From: a virus
Lineage: Duplodnaviria; Heunggongvirae; Uroviricota; Caudoviricetes
IMG/VR virus record: IMGVR_UViG_2703718791_000016
Direction: 5' to 3' (one strand)
DNA length: 7,633 nt
The position numbers were made by a program, and so were the translations under genes. Shown here one piece after another: positions 1 to 7,633 of this stretch; the first letter of the stretch is position 1; every line of letters begins with the position of its first letter. The notes below the pieces were generated by a model. The model did not search any database. It saw nothing but the letters and a program-made list of their open reading frames with translations, and was not told the DNA's origin.

Positions 1-1218
1 CGATGATGCCCCCGCGTTTAGCGCCACTCCTCCCGCATGGCGCAAAATCGCCGTTGCCAGACGGTCGGAAATAATCCCGCGGCGTGCCCAGGCGCTGAAA
101 TGGCTCGCCCTGTCCTGTGACGTCCAGGTGGCTGAGCTGTCACGCCATTTCGAACCGTAATATCCGATACCCGGAATGTCCGGGTCTTCTTCCGGTTTGT
201 TCGTCGGCACATTCACCCCGTTCTCATCCGTCATGAACGGTACGAAATGGATATTCTTTTCCGTTTTGTTTTTGTAGCTGCCGTACACCGTCTGGTACGA
301 GGATTCGTTCTTCTGCTTCCAGAAATACGTCGTGTCCCCGCATATCCAGGGAACACCGTCAGCAGATCCACCGACGCACTGACCTGCCATATCCGCCAGG
401 TCTGCACGGAATTTATCAACCAGCGCACCAAACTGTGCTGCGTGATTTGCCGGCGTACCGCCAAAATCAAATTCCCCCTGCATCCACACCACGGCAAGCA
501 GCACATTTTTCGGGTTCTTCTTCAGTGCTGCTTTTGTTCGACCGATAAGGTCCTTATACAGCGGCTTGTCCACACCCCAGCGGGTTGAATTCTCCGAAGC
601 ACCACTCGCGTCACTGTATGTGCCATCAGCTCCGGTGGTGAACGCTGAACCACCACGACAGCACGGAACCAGCAGAATGCCCGCATTCGCCGGTATAAAC
701 GGCAGCAGTTTTTTGGCGATATGCAGCCCCTGCCCCACGGTTCCGTACTGCCCCTTTGACAGGTCCGCTTTCGGATGGTTAAGGCGGCTCATGTCCTGCA
801 CATCATGCAGACAATGGTCCGCCGGAATGATGTCGTTATATTTGCATGCTGCACCGCCCGGTGTCACCGTACTGCGGCGCGCCAGCTGCTTAATACGCGG
901 GTCCGGACGGTCATATGTCTCCGGCAGCGGAAGGCCTTCACCATATGCCATGCTGTTTGACTGCCCCGCCAGAACCACAACAAAGTAATACTCCGGGTCT
1001 CTGGTGGCGCTGATTACTGTGCCTTCTCCATCCGACGGCTTCACCAACACAGGTGTGGTGACATCACCTTCCGCCGCAATGGCCTGCATCAGAGTATAAG
1101 GCGTGATGGCCACCGGGCTGCCAAATGGCTGCCACCCCTCCTTCAGTTTTTGTGTCAGCTTTTCCGCAAGATCTGACGGCGACGCCGCCCTGACCACATC
1201 GTAGTGTTTAAATACCAT
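1..1218 (-). CDS. nanS: Prophage NanS-p-type sialate (9-O-acetyl-Neu5Ac) esterase, YjhS/SGNH family; N-terminal ~406 codons, 3' end beyond window start
   Basis: Minus-strand frame is open from ATG at 1216-1218 (alternative in-frame ATG at 1234-1236) to position 1 with no stop. It is absent from the ORF track only because the window edge truncates it. Translation starts MVFKHYDVVRAASPSDLAEKLTQKLKEGWQPFGSPVAI and contains the SGNH-hydrolase block I motif VVVLAGQSNSMAYGEG. Identity as the stx-adjacent NanS-p family is from memory of that family, not a search. Confidence 0.8.
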   Translation of the reverse strand, partial: MVFKHYDVVRAASPSDLAEKLTQKLKEGWQPFGSPVAITPYTLMQAIAAEGDVTTPVLVKPSDGEGTVISATRDPEYYFVVVLAGQSNSMAYGEGLPLPETYDRPDPRIKQLARRSTVTPGGAACKYNDIIPADHCLHDVQDMSRLNHPKADLSKGQYGTVGQGLHIAKKLLPFIPANAGILLVPCCRGGSAFTTGADGTYSDASGASENSTRWGVDKPLYKDLIGRTKAALKKNPKNVLLAVVWMQGEFDFGGTPANHAAQFGALVDKFRADLADMAGQCVGGSADGVPWICGDTTYFWKQKNESSYQTVYGSYKNKTEKNIHFVPFMTDENGVNVPTNKPEEDPDIPGIGYYGSKWRDSSATWTSQDRASHFSAWARRGIISDRLATAILRHAGGVALNAGASS

Positions 1219-2441
1219 GACCTTTTCCACCATATAAAGGAACAATAAATTCTTTTCTGATAGAGATTTAAATAAAAATACATTATTTTACAAAAAAAAT
1301 AATATCCATTACAAAAACATCCGATTTTTTTATATTCCCGCTCATCCTGCTAATTTGTATTACAAAAAAATGAAACAACTTGAACCAAAGTGATACAAAA
1401 TTAGAAAAGAAAACCCCAGGAAGACAAAGAAGACGATCTTTTTCAATGAGTTACACTGATTTATTGACTATGATTTTTAGCAAAACAATCGAAAGCAATG
1501 TGTACCGAGAAGGTTAAAAGATGGAATGGATAGTTATTGACACAGTGATATGCCCATCAAGCGGAATAACGTTTTCAACTGTATGGTGTAAAATAAAGTT
1601 GATAATCTGGTATCAGTCAGATGTGTTCCTGCCACCCGGAAGTATTCTCACACCTGTTAACTCAGGTGTGATTATGGATAATAAGCTGCTTCCATTAACC
1701 ATTTACAACGTGACACCATTTAACAGAAAATTCTGGTTCCTTATCAGAAATCAAAAAGAGTGCCCCGGGAATTCAGTTAAAACAAAAATAAAATGCCATA
1801 ATAGTATGTGTGTACTGATGATATGCCCGTATGGATTATATAAGTAACAACATATGAATACATAACAGATAAACTATTGACCTTGAGGCTCATCCATATA
1901 AAGAAGAGCTCTCCGAAGAGGTGTGTATTTGCATGCACATTCCTTTTTTGCTCTATGTCATGACCTCCGGCGACTCTATCCCGGCACCAGCAAACCCGCA
2001 TCATTCTCGTTTCCGGTGTCTCTAAAACCACAGCACACCTGCCCCCCCGCTGAGGGAGGGAAGCACTGTATCCGTACACTCAGCAACAGAAATACCACCT
2101 GCTCACTGCGCTACATATCAGCAACAATTTTATACCCGAACATTATCATTCAACAGCATGGTTCACAACAACATCATAACCCAGGAAACGAGAATCAGAT
2201 CAAAAAAACAGAAATTTTACATGAAAAATACTTTTTATTAATATTGATAGCGTCGTACCACAAAATACGATGAATTATCCCTGAACTTAACATTAATGCC
2301 AGTATGTATTGCCCGCTGGTATCAGCGGGCGCTTTAAGAGATCGTATTCATGACTACCTGGGAAAAAGCTATTTTACTATTGTCAGTTTTTATTGCAGCC
2401 TTATCTGTCTACTTGCTTCACAGCCTGAACTGACCATATCT
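1219..2441. other. AT-rich, ORF-poor intergenic segment at the canonical late-region cargo (stx/moron) position between the methylase and nanS-p
   Basis: No minus-strand ORF of plausible composition lies between the methylase stop (2442) and the nanS start (1218). The sequence is markedly AT-rich (e.g. 1240-1420, 2150-2300) with repeated TACAAAAA-like motifs (~1288, 1309, 1360, 1393). The only ORFs are short or low-complexity. Confidence 0.6.
2350..2433 (+). CDS. Candidate small hydrophobic peptide (27 aa, MTTWEKAILLLSVFIAALSVYLLHSLN), convergent with and ending 8 nt before the methylase stop
   Basis: ATG at 2350 preceded by TAAGAG (2335-2340) at SD-like spacing. The 17-residue hydrophobic core would fit a single transmembrane helix. 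A GC-rich hairpin gcccgctg-gtat-cagcgggc (2311-2330) sits in the putative leader. Too short for composition statistics, so this is a candidate only. Confidence 0.2.
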   Translation: MTTWEKAILLLSVFIAALSVYLLHSLN

Positions 2442-3518
2442 TTATTCATCCTTCCCGTCATCAATTGAGCATGTAAGGATGTGACTAATCTCCTTAACGG
2501 TCTGCGCAAAACGTTCTGCCTCCAGTTCAACACCAGTTGCACGACGCCCGAGCGCCATAGCTGCTTTTATGGTTGAGCCAGAACCCATGAAAAAATCCGC
2601 CACCAGGTCACCCGGACGACTGCTCGCGCAGATTATCTGCCGCAGCATTTCTGCCGGTTTTTCGCACGGATGTTTCCCTGGATAGTACTGCACCGGTTTA
2701 TGCGTCCACACATCGGTGTACGGCACCTGCACCGTCACACCGAAATACCGCCGCAAATTTTTATATTCACTCAGCAGTTCCATGTACTGTCGGTTCAGCT
2801 CACTGTATGTGCTGACCAGTTGGTAATGGGACTTTTCCAGTTCTCCCCGCTGATGTTTCTCTTCTGCCACCCGGGCAAACAGCGACTGTAATTTCAGATA
2901 ATCGCTTTCGTTCGGTAGCTGCCACTGACTGGCACTGAACCAGTGCGACACCATGTTTTTCTTTCCTGTGGCATCTGCAATCTGTTTTGCTGTTATCCCA
3001 AGAGCAGCACGCGCATCACGAAAGTAAGAAATCAGCGGGGCCATCACATGCTGTTTCAGTGCCCTGCCCTTCGCCTCATCGCCATCATCTTTCGGACGAT
3101 ACGGCCCCTGATAATGTTCCGCGAACAGAATGCGTTCTGTGGCCGGAAAATACGCCCGCAGGCTTTCCTTGTTGCACCCGTTCCAGCGTCCGGACGGCTT
3201 CGCCCAGATAATATGGTTCAGCACATTGAAGCGTTCACGCATCATGATTTCAATGTCAGATGCCAGGCGATGGTCACAGAACAGGTAAAGACTTCCGGCA
3301 GGTTTCAGCACCCGCCAGAACTGCGCCAGACACTGGTCCAGCCACTTCAGGTAATCATCGTCGCCCTTCCACTGGTTATCCCAGCCCTCGGGCTTCACTT
3401 TAAAGTATGGCGGGTCTGTGACTATCAGATCGACAGAGTTTTCCGGTAAGGTCTGGATAAATTCCAGGCAATCAGCGTTGATTAACTCACAACTGGATAT
3501 TTTTACAGTATTAAGCAT
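2442..3518 (-). CDS. Beta-class N6-adenine DNA methyltransferase (N6_N4_Mtase type), apparently orphan
   Basis: 358-aa ORF with DLIVTDPPYF (catalytic motif IV) near the N-terminus and DFFMGSGSTIKAAMALGR (AdoMet-binding motif I, FxGxG) near the C-terminus; this motif order defines the beta class, and DPPY favours N6-adenine over N4-cytosine. No restriction endonuclease candidate is adjacent. Confidence 0.9.
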   Translation of the reverse strand: MLNTVKISSCELINADCLEFIQTLPENSVDLIVTDPPYFKVKPEGWDNQWKGDDDYLKWLDQCLAQFWRVLKPAGSLYLFCDHRLASDIEIMMRERFNVLNHIIWAKPSGRWNGCNKESLRAYFPATERILFAEHYQGPYRPKDDGDEAKGRALKQHVMAPLISYFRDARAALGITAKQIADATGKKNMVSHWFSASQWQLPNESDYLKLQSLFARVAEEKHQRGELEKSHYQLVSTYSELNRQYMELLSEYKNLRRYFGVTVQVPYTDVWTHKPVQYYPGKHPCEKPAEMLRQIICASSRPGDLVADFFMGSGSTIKAAMALGRRATGVELEAERFAQTVKEISHILTCSIDDGKDE

Positions 3519-3550
3519 GGATCATTAAGCCTGTCTCTGATAGGCTCATT

Positions 3551-3570
3551 CTGCTTTTGCGCAAAGCAGT
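3551..3570. promoter_or_regulatory. Inverted repeat CTGCTTT-TGCGCA-AAGCAG, 35-65 bp upstream of the methylase start; candidate operator or RNA hairpin
   Basis: A 7-bp perfect inverted repeat flanking the palindromic hexamer TGCGCA, read directly from the sequence between the 65-aa ORF terminator and the methylase ATG. Confidence 0.3.
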
Positions 3571-3656
3571 GGGCCTGAGGTTTGCTTGTGAACCCAACGC
3601 ATGAGCAGATGGCTGGTAGGTGCCCCTAACACCCACCAGCCGCCCATTTACCACAA

Positions 3657-3682
3657 ATAAAAAAGCCTTCACTGCGGAAGGC
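3657..3682 (-). terminator. Intrinsic terminator (minus strand) overlapping the stop codon of the 65-aa ORF
   Basis: On the minus strand: stem GCCTTC / loop CGCAGT / stem GAAGGC followed by TTTTTTATTTG. Confidence 0.5.
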
Positions 3683-3866
3683 GTCTGTAACAACCGAACT
3701 GATAGTCTGCCAGACCCGCCATAACAAGCTGGGTCAGTATTAACTGGCAGCGTTCGCGTGAAAGGTAAGTATTCTGCGCAATCTCCCCGACTGTCGCCGG
3801 GTCGGTAACGCTTAATTCATTAAACACCACTCTGGCGGTTTCTGTCATATCCTGCTGTTTTAGCAT
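3669..3866 (-). CDS. Small (65 aa) putative winged-helix / HTH DNA-binding protein
   Basis: ATG preceded by AAAGGGAAAAAAGAC (purine-rich SD-like). The segment TVGEIAQNTYLSRERCQLILTQLVMAGLA has a helix-turn-helix-like pattern. It lies between two intrinsic terminators, downstream of Q and upstream of the methylase. Confidence 0.4.
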   Translation of the reverse strand: MLKQQDMTETARVVFNELSVTDPATVGEIAQNTYLSRERCQLILTQLVMAGLADYQFGCYRRLPQ

Positions 3867-3986
3867 GTCTTTTTTCCCTTTTGGTTAACGTGACATACCA
3901 ATAACTCTTGTCCAAAAAGCCAGTAAGCAGAAAGACCGGTATTCGCAACCACCAGCGCATTTAACGCCCCGTGCCGTTTTTCAGTC

Positions 3987-4012
3987 ATAAAAAAACCCGC
4001 AAAAAGCGGGCT
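3987..4012 (-). terminator. tR'-like intrinsic terminator about 80-100 nt downstream of the Q stop codon
   Basis: On the minus strand: AGAGCCCGC-TTTTT-GCGGG followed by TTTTTTTA (5-bp all-GC stem plus a 7-8 T run). The position matches the short terminated late leader transcript that Q-modified RNA polymerase reads through in lambdoid phages. Confidence 0.55.
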
Positions 4013-4089
4013 CTTTCAAATGTCCATGTCTGCTATTCGCCTCGCGGTACAGCTTTGCGAAGCTTACCGGAATTGAAGCAGTTTTTACG

Positions 4090-4656
4090 TCAAAAAGCAA
4101 TAACTTTTTTCTCTATACCAAAAGCCATAACCATTGGTTTGTACAAAATAAATTCTGCCACCTTTAGCCAATGCTCAATGCGTCTTTCACAGGTTCTTAA
4201 ACTCCATTCCGGATGTGCATCATTCAGCAGTTCAGCCATTTTGCGCTTAGTCATCCCCCGCCCCACATAACGCTGACTCAGAACATTGAGCAGCCCGGGA
4301 TAACCTGCCAGTACTTCACCAATAACCCTGTCGATTATTAACGCCTCTGAATCGGTACAATGTGCCAGCCAGCTTTTTTGATTGCCGTTGATCATATCCC
4401 GCAAAAAAGCCTCAAGTTCAGGTTTGTCCAGACCCGCTTTTTTCATCCTCCGGAGCGCCTCGTTAATTGCCGTTTTTGTCAGCTTTTTAGAGGTCAGTAA
4501 TTGGTTGAACATATTTCCCGTCTTACCGTCGCCAATATACGACCAACGCCCCCACATACGCAGTTTCCCCTGGATCCAGACACTTTCCAGCGTTTTCAGG
4601 CGTAAATGCTCACCGCTTTTGCCTGTAATTTCCGGGTATATCATATTTATGCTCAC
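4090..4656 (-). CDS. Q: Late-gene antitermination protein Q, Q21/QuuD-like family
   Basis: Position immediately downstream of rusA (GTGA start/stop overlap; alternative ATG at 4644) and upstream of a tR'-like terminator. The segment LRMWGRWS...NQLLTSKK resembles the WGAW...GLITSK pattern I recall from DLP12 QuuD. Family assignment is from memory. Confidence 0.65.
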   Translation of the reverse strand: MSINMIYPEITGKSGEHLRLKTLESVWIQGKLRMWGRWSYIGDGKTGNMFNQLLTSKKLTKTAINEALRRMKKAGLDKPELEAFLRDMINGNQKSWLAHCTDSEALIIDRVIGEVLAGYPGLLNVLSQRYVGRGMTKRKMAELLNDAHPEWSLRTCERRIEHWLKVAEFILYKPMVMAFGIEKKVIAF

Positions 4657-5012
4657 TCACTTTCAATTTTGTAAATCTTCACGCCCAGCCGCCCACCAGA
4701 AACGAGCTGACCGCGCACAATATTGATTTCATCAAACTGCTCGTCGTCTATGAGAAGTCCGGCATGCGTCAGCGCATCCAGCGGTGCTTTCAGGATATTG
4801 TCCAGATCACGACGGCGCTTATCCGGTGGCTCTGCAATAATCTTTATCGCCAGCCTTCCGGACAGGCTTAATTTCAGCCGCTGCTGGCGAACAATAAGCG
4901 CCACAGCCCGGCGATAACGCTTTCCCTCCTCCGAGATAAAATATGTGCTGCCACGGCGTCGCCAGTAAGTGTTCACCGTCGGCGGGTAAGGTAAAACCAA
5001 ATCTATGAGCAT
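4653..5012 (-). CDS. rusA: Crossover junction endodeoxyribonuclease RusA (Holliday junction resolvase)
   Basis: 119 aa. Conserved RusA features are present: PYPPTVNTYW near the N-terminus and the acidic catalytic residues in RRRDLDN and LIDDEQ. The SD AAGAGGTG sits 6 nt upstream of the ATG. Confidence 0.9.
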   Translation of the reverse strand: MLIDLVLPYPPTVNTYWRRRGSTYFISEEGKRYRRAVALIVRQQRLKLSLSGRLAIKIIAEPPDKRRRDLDNILKAPLDALTHAGLLIDDEQFDEINIVRGQLVSGGRLGVKIYKIESE

Positions 5013-5024
5013 CAGTCACCTCTT

Positions 5025-6074
5025 TTACCCAAGCACGCCAGTTGCAAAGGCGTGATCAAGAAAACGAAAAATTAAATCAACCTGAGAGCCATGCTTTTCT
5101 TCGAACGCCAGCGGATCCGCATGAAGCTCGTTGTGATGCTCCCGACACAGCGGTAGCGTGAAAATATCGTGAGATTTTGTCCCCATTCCGCCCTGACCAT
5201 GACCAATCAGGTGATGGGGATCGTCGGCTGGCTTACCACAACACGCACACGGCTGAGTCTTCACCCAGCGTGTGTATTTCTCGTTAACCCAGCGGCGACG
5301 TTTAGGTCGTTTCATGAAAGATTCCGGAGACTCAGGATCAACGGCAATGCTGACCACCGTCTTTTCCTGTGGTGGGTTCTGTTGCTGGTGGACGTCAGGC
5401 AGTAACGCAATATTTTTTGTGCGCTGCTTCAGTATGCTGGTGGCGGTCTGCTCTCCCGGCACGATGTCGCTTTCACGGTACATTGAGCGGATTTTTTCCG
5501 CACGCACCCCCAGCGAACGACGTAATACCGCTTCCGGTAGCGCGTCCGCCACCTGATTGCGGACCGCCCACCAGGATAATTCAGCCAAAGATAATTCACG
5601 CTCCTGCGTACCGCTTATTGCGTGACCGATGACGTCAATCATCCATGCTGACAGGTTTTGATGAGCAAGTTGCTCGAGTGATTCGGATGTCTGGTCACGC
5701 AGCTGGTTGTCGCAGTGCCAGCACAACACCATTGCGCCGGTACCATAACGGTGAATGACAGTTTCGCTGTGATGATAATCGCCGTGTGGCCACTGGCAGG
5801 ATTTCACGTGACGCAACAGCCAGTCAGACAATGCACCAGCACCACCAGCAGCACGAATCACCCGTGCGTTACTGAAAAACGGCAGCAATGTTTTGTCTTC
5901 CACCAGCGGCTGGCGAACGGCAGGAACGACCCCGGACGGCAGATTACGCATGCTTTTCGGTTCCGGCTCCATCAATACCCGGGTATTGTGGAATACTGGC
6001 ATGGATTCACGGCCCGGCTTAACGATCACCAGCCCGAGTTCCGGTACCAGAACAGGTCGAAGTAATACCCGCAC
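5025..6074 (-). CDS. ydfU: DUF968 / YdfU-like prophage protein with C-terminal HNH-like zinc-binding nuclease motif
   Basis: 349-aa ORF with GTG start preceded by GGAGG. The C-terminal region CACCGKPADDPHHLIGHGQGG...LPLCREHHNELH carries a CxCC...HH...CxxHH arrangement typical of HNH-fold proteins. Length and synteny (upstream of rusA-Q, near rem-hokD) match Qin YdfU as I remember it. Confidence 0.75.
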   Translation of the reverse strand: MRVLLRPVLVPELGLVIVKPGRESMPVFHNTRVLMEPEPKSMRNLPSGVVPAVRQPLVEDKTLLPFFSNARVIRAAGGAGALSDWLLRHVKSCQWPHGDYHHSETVIHRYGTGAMVLCWHCDNQLRDQTSESLEQLAHQNLSAWMIDVIGHAISGTQERELSLAELSWWAVRNQVADALPEAVLRRSLGVRAEKIRSMYRESDIVPGEQTATSILKQRTKNIALLPDVHQQQNPPQEKTVVSIAVDPESPESFMKRPKRRRWVNEKYTRWVKTQPCACCGKPADDPHHLIGHGQGGMGTKSHDIFTLPLCREHHNELHADPLAFEEKHGSQVDLIFRFLDHAFATGVLG

Positions 6075-6075
6075 G

Positions 6076-6354
6076 TTACCTCCAGATGCGTTGCTGGAAT
6101 GTGCGAGACGGACGCGGTGGGCGTTCAGAGTAAGGAAGCCTGACGGAGATTATCCAGTGACGGTAGTCGAGACTAAGGGCTTTCTTAACCTCGTATCCGC
6201 GCCTGCGGTAACACTGAATTATCCATTCAGCCTGCTCTTCAGTACATGGAGGGTGTTGGAACCATTCAGACTTGAATGCGTGAGAATACCGCTCGTGCGT
6301 GCAGGCAAGAACGGGCGAATTATCAGAATTGTAATATTTTACGTTGCGTGCCAT
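6076..6354 (-). CDS. Hypothetical prophage protein (92 aa), translationally coupled to the DUF968 gene
   Basis: ATG at 6354 preceded by GGAGAAAACCG. Its TAA stop lies inside the GGAGG-TAA-c-GTG junction that provides the RBS and start of the downstream DUF968 gene. Protein composition is plausible, but I recognise no motif. Confidence 0.5.
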   Translation of the reverse strand: MARNVKYYNSDNSPVLACTHERYSHAFKSEWFQHPPCTEEQAEWIIQCYRRRGYEVKKALSLDYRHWIISVRLPYSERPPRPSRTFQQRIWR

Positions 6355-6420
6355 CGGTTTTCTCCGGTGGCACGGTGTTACTCAGCGGGAGTTCAGCCCC
6401 GCGCAAGATTGTAGATGAGT

Positions 6421-6672
6421 TTATTCTTCTGCAAAAGCTGAAAAGCCTGCTTTTATTCCGATCTCTTTCAGTGCCTGTAATGAAGTGACAAACTCACCTT
6501 CGCGCAAGATAAATCCGTCTGTCACTCGACCATCCACAAAATTAATTAACGCAGCCCCATTCTTTCGCAAACACATAATGCGGTAATGACTAACAAGATT
6601 TCCATTTTCAACGCACACAGCATAGAGGCCATCTTCACAAAAAATTTTACGCAGTTCTTCGATGTTCATCAT
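6421..6672 (-). CDS. rem: Rem-like small prophage protein (83 aa)
   Basis: ATG-ATG start preceded by GGAAGG. Length (83 aa) and position between the ydfU-like gene and hokD match the Qin-prophage rem locus as I recall it. The symbol rests on synteny and length only, not on a recognised sequence. Confidence 0.45.
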   Translation of the reverse strand: MMNIEELRKIFCEDGLYAVCVENGNLVSHYRIMCLRKNGAALINFVDGRVTDGFILREGEFVTSLQALKEIGIKAGFSAFAEE

Positions 6673-6785
6673 CAGAATCCTTCCGGATAATTAGCTCTCC
6701 CCTTTAAGGGACCATCCCTCTTATCCCTGCGCGCTACTTAAGTATTTTTGATTCTATTCCGGCGCCGTCCAGAACTTCAAACGCG

Positions 6786-6820
6786 TTGAAAATAAAAACA
6801 AAAACCCGCCGAAGCGGGTT
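6786..6820 (-). terminator. Intrinsic terminator of the hok mRNA (minus strand)
   Basis: On the minus strand: AACCCGC-TTCG-GCGGGTT followed by TTTTGTTTTTATTTTC, 70-100 nt downstream of the hok stop. Confidence 0.6.
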
Positions 6821-6888
6821 AAGTGCGGGTGCGTTGAGGATGCCTGCCACATCAGAGGTGGCGAGGGATTTCTCCCTCGCCGGGTCTC

Positions 6889-7044
6889 TTACTCCTCAGG
6901 TTCGTAAGCTGTGAAGACAGCGACCTCCGTCTGGCCGGTTCGGATTCGTACCTCGCAGAGGTCTTTCCTCGTTACCAGTGCCGTCACTATGACGGTTAAA
7001 CAGATGACGATCAGGGCGATTAACATCGCCTTTTGCTGCTTCAT
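6889..7044 (-). CDS. hokD: Hok/Gef-family type I toxin (51 aa), HokD/RelF-like
   Basis: Translation MKQQKAMLIALIVICLTVIVTALVTRKDLCEVRIRTGQTEVAVFTAYEPEE is unmistakably Hok/Gef family (single transmembrane helix, conserved C-terminal periplasmic tail). SD AAGGAGAAG lies 8 nt upstream of the ATG at 7044. The HokD assignment is from memory. Confidence 0.88.
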   Translation of the reverse strand: MKQQKAMLIALIVICLTVIVTALVTRKDLCEVRIRTGQTEVAVFTAYEPEE

Positions 7045-7101
7045 AGCCTGCTTCTCCTTGCCTTTCGGCACGTAAGAGGCTAACCTACATGTGTCTAGCA
7101 T
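6889..7101 (-). CDS. mok: Mok-like in-frame N-terminally extended reading frame (70 codons) overlapping hok
   Basis: ATG at 7099-7101 with GAGG 8-9 nt upstream, giving a 19-codon in-frame extension of hok. This parallels the mokC (69 aa) / hokC (50 aa) arrangement in E. coli K-12 as I recall it. Confidence 0.45.
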   Translation of the reverse strand: MLDTCRLASYVPKGKEKQAMKQQKAMLIALIVICLTVIVTALVTRKDLCEVRIRTGQTEVAVFTAYEPEE

Positions 7102-7167
7102 GAAATTGGCCTCAGATTAATGTTAAGCGTCTTGCAGGACGCGTAATGTTAACTGGGGCTTTTCTCT
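7093..7167 (+). ncRNA. sok: Candidate Sok-like antisense RNA covering the mok translation-initiation region
   Basis: Plus-strand promoter-like TTGCCT (7058-7063), 17 bp spacer, TAACCT (7081-7086). The predicted transcript is antisense to the mok SD and start. A nested hairpin (GCGTC/GACGC at 7127-7142, enclosed by 7109-7115 pairing with 7153-7159) is followed by TTTTCTCT. Boundaries are approximate and unverified. Confidence 0.3.
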
Positions 7168-7284
7168 ATCTGCCTTTGGTGTTCATGCCTGAGACAGATA
7201 GCCTCAAGCACCCGCAGCCATTCTACTTAACTCCCGTTACCCCGCCAATATGAAATCAGTCAGAAAGGCGATCCATAAGAATAA

Positions 7285-7312
7285 TGAACCGCCCCGGGTT
7301 TCCTGGAGAGTA
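7285..7312. repeat. Terminal inverted repeat (IRR) of the IS3-family element
   Basis: TGAACCGCCCCGGGTTTCCTGGAGAGTA lies at the element boundary, 15 bp outside the transposase stop. The exact IR length was not determined. Confidence 0.55.
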
Positions 7313-7326
7313 TTTTATCTGTGAAC

Positions 7327-7633
7327 TCAGGCTGCCAGATCATTATTTCCGATGGAAGCATAATAAGCTTTTTCTGCTTCTGCCGGAGGAATATGGCCCA
7401 GCCTTTCCAGCAATCGTCGATTGTTATACCAGTCCACCCACGTTCGTGTGGCCAGTTCCACTTCTGTCCGGTTTTTCCAGCTATTACGGTGTATTACCTC
7501 CGCTTTGTAAAGACCATTGATGCTCTCAGCCATCGCGTTGTCATACGAGTCGCCAGTACTCCCTGTTGATGCCAGTAATCCGGCTTCCTTAAGCCGCTGC
7601 GCGTAGGCCAGCGATACATACTGAGAACCTTTA
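7327..7633 (-). CDS. IS3-family transposase OrfB (rve/DDE integrase core), C-terminal ~101 codons; 5' part beyond window end
   Basis: Minus-strand frame is open from the window edge: KGSQYVSLAYAQRLKEAGLLASTGSTGDSYDNAMAESINGLYKAEVIHRNSWKNR...LGHIPPAEAEKAYYASIGNNDLAA, stop at 7327-7329. The DSYDNAxAES region carries the conserved third acidic residue of the DDE triad. The ORF track shows only the 68-aa Met-initiated tail. Confidence 0.85.
   Translation of the reverse strand, partial: KGSQYVSLAYAQRLKEAGLLASTGSTGDSYDNAMAESINGLYKAEVIHRNSWKNRTEVELATRTWVDWYNNRRLLERLGHIPPAEAEKAYYASIGNNDLAA

Follow-up and report, generated by a model that had tools for sequence, protein, structure and literature searches.

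Does an insertion sequence (IS) that ends just upstream of a toxin gene silence it, activate it or leave it as it was? The question is raised by a 7,633-nt stretch of DNA from a virus of the Caudoviricetes (IMG/VR record IMGVR_UViG_2703718791_000016; the whole stretch is referred to as the window), in which a hok/mok/sok-type locus at 6786-7284 abuts the end of an IS element. The preliminary description of this DNA located the IS end roughly where the hok promoter would be expected, and offered two readings: another hok locus inactivated by an IS, as reported for Escherichia coli K-12, or an outward promoter supplied by the IS. We assign 6786-7284, on the strength of its sequence and with high confidence, to a complete and canonical hok/mok/sok type I toxin-antitoxin cassette of the hokD type, an accessory module of a prophage. 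The same high confidence covers, jointly, the intactness of the cassette, a mechanism like that of plasmid R1 and a simple insertion of the IS. Nothing in the sequence suggests that the IS damaged or rewired the cassette. The hokD-type cassette is a well-known element, seen here in its ordinary state.

Results

Anatomy of the hok cassette

The carrier is an E. coli lambdoid prophage, in which the genes follow the order Q-like antiterminator, RusA, DUF968, Rem and hokD. Going by how near-identical relatives are annotated, the window begins on its left with part of a frameshifted DUF6645/SASA-type gene (1-1220), and iraM (a PmrD-family anti-adapter) lies at 1521-1847 on the plus strand; a tRNA scan of the window returned no tRNA genes. 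At least 80% of 6680-7290 is held by 2385 of the 5426 complete E. coli genomes. What could be established directly are the anatomy of the sequence, its homologies, its predicted folds and the structure of the adjoining insertion; these define the following features, given in window coordinates with their basis in brackets.

6793-6820, minus strand: intrinsic terminator of the hok mRNA (terminator scan)
6797-7213, minus strand: predicted full-length hok mRNA, ~417 nt (5' end from Rfam position 1 and the conserved GGGTGCTTGAGGC; 3' end from the terminator)
6827-6839, minus strand: fbi (fold-back inhibition) element CCUCAACGCACCC (MFE and centroid structures)
6860-6881, minus strand: stem-loop of the 3' UTR (predicted fold)
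6889-7044, minus strand: hok ORF, HokD type, 51 aa plus stop (ORF list, Pfam, RefSeq)
6889-7101, minus strand: mok ORF, 70 codons, in frame with hok (ORF list; alignment with the K-12 mokC start)
7058-7086, plus strand: Sok promoter TTGCCT-17-TAACCT (read from the sequence)
7093-7169, plus strand: Sok antisense RNA, ~76 nt, with 5' tail, long hairpin and U-tract (coordinates transferred from K-12 sokC/sokE)
7110-7113, minus strand: mok Shine-Dalgarno (SD) sequence GAGG (read from the sequence)
7155-7161, minus strand: ucb (anti-SD box, AAGCCCC) (predicted folds)
7202-7213, minus strand: tac (translational activator) element (predicted folds, mRNA 5' end)
7220-7248, minus strand: hok promoter TTGGCG-17-TAGAAT (promoter scan, 9/12 matches)
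7249-7284, minus strand: cassette DNA between the -35 box and the IS, 36 bp (identical in IS-free relatives)
7285-7633, minus strand: right end of a 1310-bp IS3-family element, IS629/IS1203-like (terminal repeat, rve_3, transpos_IS3)

The intact 51-residue Hok of the preliminary description is borne out. The protein matches the Pfam family PF01848 HOK_GEF with 82.9 bits (cutoff 22; E=1.2e-23), which places it in the Hok/Gef family of small hydrophobic toxins, and the identical protein is named HokD by RefSeq in thousands of E. coli genomes. The in-frame Mok extension of 70 codons stands as well: its start codon, at 7101-7099, aligns with the annotated mokC start of K-12, and the GAGG that stands 8 nt upstream corresponds to the GAGG described as the mok SD of R1 (PMC9841398), so that an overlapping mok frame with an SD of its own lies upstream of hok. 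The codon for Tyr47 of Hok (TAC, 6904-6906 on the minus strand) occurs in a UACG context (CUUACGAA). For the hokC, hokD and hokE mRNAs, A-to-I editing by TadA has been reported to change Tyr to Cys, equivalent to Cys46 of HokB, with a reported editing of ~6% for hokD in K-12; Tyr47 corresponds to this position.

A conserved, structured hok mRNA leader precedes these frames. Rfam model RF01794 matches 7213-7039 on the minus strand over all of its positions (1-157 of 157) with 118.3 bits (gathering score 59; E=3.1e-27). This model is labeled 'sok', yet its match is to the hok-sense strand and runs up to the hok AUG; the Rfam model is in effect the hok mRNA leader, to part of which Sok is complementary. 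The leader begins at 7213 with GGGTGCTTGAGGC, a block common to hokC, hokE and plasmid hok. Upstream, the -10 box TAGAAT aligns with TATAAT (hokC), TAAGAT (hokE) and TACAAT (plasmid hok), each 6 nt ahead of the conserved GGGTGCTTGAGG. Homology served to place both the mRNA 5' end (~7213) and the ends of Sok. Thus, alignment with intact hok loci, which the preliminary description had named as the way to see if promoter and 5' activator element are missing, finds both the promoter (7248-7220) and tac (7213-7202) in place.

The candidate antisense RNA of the preliminary description is likewise recovered. Transferred to the window, the ends given for sokC and sokE in the K-12 annotation fall at 7093/7094 and 7168/7169 of the plus strand, and the RNA so delimited is predicted to form a stable hairpin (-30.5 kcal/mol, z=-5.9) and overlaps both the mok start codon and its SD. 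The putative Sok promoter lies 7 nt upstream of the position aligned with the annotated 5' ends of sokC and sokE; its -10 box, TAACCT, is a weak match to the consensus and falls below the threshold of the promoter scan. At the level of sequence, then, a cis-antisense Sok with a putative promoter of its own covers the mok translation start. A literature search on 'sokD' found nothing relevant.

Predicted folds of the hok mRNA

Downstream of hok, the terminator anticipated by the preliminary description was returned by the terminator scan, as a 7-bp stem at 6820-6803 on the minus strand (5 G-C pairs) followed by a T-run. The hairpin that had been put forward as a possible fold-back element is also present, at 6860-6881, with a 9-bp stem and a GAAA loop. 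Its proposed role did not hold: the fold rules it out as the fbi, as in the MFE structure it is 6827-6839 that pairs with the mRNA 5' end. Judging from R1 (PMC9841398), the hairpin probably forms the stem that protects the processed mRNA at its 3' end. A promoter-like site, TTGAAG-18-TAGAAT (6751-6780, minus strand), directly follows the hok terminator; rem (6421-6672) lies downstream of it and may be transcribed from there.

For the transcript of 417 nt (7213-6797), the predicted fold has an energy of -172.4 kcal/mol; compared with shuffled sequences, its z is -8.4. In both the MFE and the centroid structures the fbi forms 12 base pairs, with one bulge, with nucleotides 1-12 of the mRNA (7213-7202), and in the full-length fold the mok SD GAGG (7113-7110) is paired to the GCCCC of ucb, at ~7155-7160. 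Removal in silico of 45-50 nt from the 3' end changes this picture: nucleotides 1-8 now pair with nucleotides 53-59 (tac/ucb), and the mok SD pairs with GCCUC (dcb, 7076-7080). A long-range tac/fbi pairing that switches to tac/ucb on 3' trimming is thereby reproduced in silico, and the tac/ucb and SD/dcb pairings predicted for the trimmed hok mRNA are those of the switch described for R1 hok mRNA (PMC9841398). Given the E-values of the Rfam and Pfam matches and the z-score of the mRNA fold against shuffles, these features of the cassette lie far beyond chance.

Identity and insertion of the IS element

The IS3-family end that the preliminary description placed about 240 bp upstream of hok is there: the terminal repeat TGAACCGCCCC starts at 7285, and 240 bp (7045-7284) separate the IS from the hok ATG. 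The terminal repeat TGAACCGCCCCGG is found at both ends of the element in two related loci, L009 and L011; rve_3 and the NCBIfam model transpos_IS3 match the minus-strand translation of the IS, and relatives of the element are annotated with a programmed orfA/orfB frameshift. With terminal inverted repeats, a DDE/rve transposase made by frameshifting and a 3-bp duplication, the element belongs to the IS3 family. It agrees with the IS629/IS1203-type elements of Shiga-toxin-producing E. coli (STEC) in its length of 1310 bp, its TGAACCGCCCCGG ends, the orfA/orfB frameshift, the 3-bp duplication and an abundance of tens of copies per genome; its identity is ~92-94% with annotated IS1203 copies and 99.4% with those carried by O26 and other STEC genomes. 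Thousands of copies of this IS occur in E. coli. Its transposase gene is co-directional with hok, and orfB stops at 7327.

An exact-protein look-up with the DUF968 protein identified two genomes, GCA_003015285.1 (L011) and GCA_026134195.1 (L012), that match the window from 1 to 7633 in one piece, at 99.95-99.96% and with the exact junction included. In both, the 1310-bp IS is flanked by TAA (...aagaaTAA, then the element from TGAACC to GGTTCA, then TAA and tgaattctg), after which the IS-free sequence resumes. The last 3 bp of cassette DNA, TAA at 7282-7284, are the target-site duplication, repeated at the other end of the IS in L011. Beyond the IS lie PtuB (PADLOC, 1.1e-83) and PtuA (1.2e-165), a Septu defence operon co-directional with hok; in L011 it occupies 5409-7404, past window position 7633, and encodes a PtuA of 457 aa and a PtuB of 211 aa. 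The preliminary description had pointed to the sequence beyond 7633 as a place to inspect for relBE; in L011 and L012 that place is taken by PtuB and PtuA, not by relBE. The IS landed in the spacer that runs from the end of the Septu operon (PtuA/PtuB) to the point where the hok cassette begins on its upstream side. A Septu operon adjoins the hok cassette in only 19 of the 5426 complete E. coli genomes. The same 9-kb stretch of L011 and L012 holds two further IS copies.

A different origin of the junction has to be weighed, in which an IS-mediated adjacent deletion removed ~4.2 kb (Septu, an integrase fragment and DUF5677) between the cassette and an IS copy found upstream in the closest complete genome. 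That genome, strain 2013C-4974, does carry the same type of IS in the same orientation 4211 bp upstream, and the window matched it as two pieces that overlap by TGAA at the junction; the 4.2 kb between the two matched pieces hold an HNH endonuclease, an AAA ATPase, the integrase fragment and DUF5677, and the IS follows. Scans for the junction pattern in genome contigs and viral contigs gave no match, and none of the complete E. coli RefSeq genomes contains the junction in one piece. L011 and L012 are decisive here, as both carry the exact junction in one piece with a complete IS, the TAA repeats and PtuB/PtuA on its far side. A deletion of 4211 bp with TGAA microhomology was rejected on these grounds, provided that the window comes from a genome of the L011/L012 type, and we regard it as most improbable. 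The junction arose by simple transposition, in which 3 bp (TAA) were duplicated, since L011 and L012 show the complete IS, the duplication and the PtuB/PtuA sequence continuing beyond.

The IS element and the hok transcription unit

Whether this IS took anything from the cassette can be read from where the cassette ends. Counted from the mRNA start, the IS sets in at -72, with 36 bp between it and the -35 box. Over 6680-7288, the window and the IS-free locus of strain 2013C-4974 share 100% identity. To define the edge of the cassette, E. coli genomes were searched with the IS-free sequence extended past it. Similarity is lost at 7280-7285 in most genomes and earlier (7267, 7249, 7242, 7232) in others; in plasmid hok loci it extends no further than 7225, where the -10 box ends, and only 19 of the 5426 complete E. 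coli genomes continue into the flank on the PtuB side. As judged from these alignments, no conserved part of the cassette lies to the right of 7285, and the IS removes none. Since IS-free homologues share the same upstream sequence, with a promoter located wholly to the left of 7285, the IS end does not coincide with the expected site of the hok promoter, as had been supposed: both the promoter (7248-7220) and the mRNA 5' end (~7213) are clear of it. The idea of the IS as a source of an outward promoter fares no better. Neither the promoter scan nor manual reading found a promoter, outward or hybrid, at the IS end or across it; this candidate was rejected, as no promoter-like site spans or leaves that end.

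Could the IS nonetheless perturb hok, through the loss of upstream promoter elements or the supply of an outward or read-through promoter, and so create an IS-inactivated or IS-activated gene? Its closeness, at -72, speaks for such an effect, as do the direction of the transposase gene, which is that of hok, the lack of any predicted minus-strand terminator from the orfB stop (7327) to the hok promoter, and the precedent of K-12, in which IS elements do inactivate hokA, hokC and hokE. Against it, both promoter boxes (-35 and -10), tac and the 36 bp that precede the -35 box have been kept and do not differ from those of IS-free relatives; the conserved cassette ends at 7280-7285 elsewhere, so nothing conserved has been lost; and the scan offers no promoter-like site that spans or leaves the IS end. 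The K-12 elements, for their part, each interrupt the transcription unit itself, within either the 3' UTR or mok. Some read-through from the transposase gene into the cassette may occur, but ptuB was also read toward hok in the IS-free ancestor, so the potential for read-through is not new. Measured against the class of IS-inactivated hok genes, the locus has its IS outside the transcription unit, with 71 bp separating it from the mRNA 5' end on the upstream side, and no loss of conserved cassette sequence relative to IS-free homologues. We consider a perturbation of hok by the IS unlikely, and favor an intact cassette with the IS beside it.

The insertion point falls within 0-4 bp of the point (7284-7288) at which hokD cassettes diverge among prophages, and the first four bases of the IS, TGAA, equal the four bases after the insertion site in the empty locus. 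Both the TGAA match and the agreement of the IS site with the divergence point are probably coincidence. A recombination or insertion hotspot at the cassette edge, or an IS that uncouples hok from Septu read-through, is a very unlikely reading that nothing here supports; if true, uncoupling would change the co-regulation of two defence-type modules.

Comparison with chromosomal and plasmid hok loci

The closest counterpart in K-12 is hokD (relF) of the Qin prophage. The alignment shows no difference in the hok ORF and 1 in the 3' UTR (hairpin, fbi and terminator), and the downstream neighbors (rem, DUF968/ydfU and a Q-like antiterminator) are the same. The two differ upstream, where homology begins only ~15 bp before the hok ATG and K-12 has relB-relE in place of the promoter, tac, ucb, the mok start and sok; relE ends 71 bp upstream of hokD. 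In agreement with the preliminary description, the relB-relE-hokD arrangement is absent from the window, whose ORF list contains no relE-like frame in 7045-7284 that would end just upstream of hokD. The literature states that K-12 hokD is a rearranged form. By this alignment, K-12 hokD is a truncated, leaderless form and the locus of the window the complete one. In strain PE164 (NZ_CP114128.1, L005, 1691-3180), an IS481-family element lies between the hokD ORF and a detached fragment of hok leader, with a homology breakpoint ~15 bp upstream of the hokD ATG, as in K-12 hokD; this breakpoint may be recurrent.

The K-12 loci hokC/sokC (gef) and hokE/sokE share a homologous -10 box, tac, leader and Sok region with the window, and K-12 mokC is likewise an in-frame extension of hokC, both coding sequences stopping at 16751. 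Their 3' UTRs are interrupted by IS186, 19 bp (hokC) and 18 bp (hokE) past the stop codon, with the removal of fbi (PMC3562002), whereas the 3' UTR of the window is intact and its Sok hairpin is 18 nt longer. K-12 hokA/mokA resembles the window in having an IS on the upstream side of hok; this element, IS150, sits inside mokA, 32 bp from the hokA ATG, and cuts off promoter, leader and sok, whereas here the distance is 240 bp and the IS is outside the promoter. The analogy with K-12 was therefore imprecise: it is right that IS elements inactivate hokA, hokC and hokE, but in all three the IS lies inside the transcription unit, unlike here, and the window does not provide another IS-inactivated hok of the K-12 kind. 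A true analogue of the IS186 disruptions is the insertion in strain OkiPb01713 (NZ_AP042682.1, L010, 12891-14200), where another IS3-family copy, with 92% identity, has been inserted at the hokD stop codon (window ~6881-6890) and separates the hokD ORF from the 3' hairpin, fbi and terminator.

Plasmid loci are the likeness from which the mechanism is drawn. The tac/fbi, ucb/SD, tac/ucb and SD/dcb pairings and the position of Sok over the mok start, all predicted here, are shared with hok/sok (parB) of plasmid R1 and related plasmid loci (PMC9841398). Plasmid pTB-nb1 hok aligns from the -10 box through the hok ORF into the 3' hairpin; the copy of the window differs from plasmid hok in being chromosomal and prophage-borne, and has diverged upstream of the -10 box. 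For K-12 hokC (L006) and pTB-nb1 hok (L020), homology to the locus stops inside the 3' hairpin, at an IS186/IS421 insertion. The hairpin at 6860-6881 (GGGG..N..CCC), with its G-rich and C-rich arms, resembles a G/C-rich IS186 target. IS186 prefers G/C-rich targets, and this preference could be the cause of the recurrent insertions just after hok genes.

Discussion

How the cassette would work can be proposed from the plasmid R1 system. The sigma-70 promoter at 7248-7220 would yield the mRNA of ~417 nt, and tac at its 5' end would pair with the 3' fbi and close the molecule, with ucb hiding the mok ribosome-binding site. Slow trimming from the 3' end would then remove fbi, allow tac/ucb pairing and expose the mok SD, upon which translation of Mok would drive that of Hok. 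The short-lived Sok (7093-7169, plus strand) would bind the mok start region of the processed mRNA and so lead to its destruction; Hok, a small membrane toxin, would be made only once the supply of Sok stops. By homology, the cassette should work like R1 hok/sok. It is from this likeness that we infer transcription, processing and toxicity, and also any role in prophage maintenance or phage defence.

An intact structure is no proof of biological activity, because chromosomal hok loci that have been tested lack post-segregational killing: this killing was shown for plasmid hok loci and not for chromosomal ones, and native chromosomal hokA, hokB and hokC were without it when tested (bioRxiv 10.1101/2025.08.07.668861). 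The cassette may thus be structurally intact and biologically silent, with neither post-segregational killing nor any other phenotype, like those loci. We hold this to be a real, if lesser, possibility; against it stands the toxicity reported for the HokD coding sequence when overexpressed (bioRxiv 10.1101/2025.08.07.668861). The intactness of the cassette itself is common to both views.

A locus that had been flagged as a possible IS-inactivated toxin is an ordinary, intact hokD-type cassette, and the adjoining IS is a routine insertion of the STEC kind. Near-identical hokD-type cassettes occur in ~2,400 of 5,426 complete E. coli genomes, and the locus of the window is the full-length version of which the K-12 hokD (relF) gene is a truncated remnant. 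Where an IS has truly disrupted a hok locus, it is found within the transcription unit, frequently in the 3' hairpin, which provides a simple rule for judging such cases.
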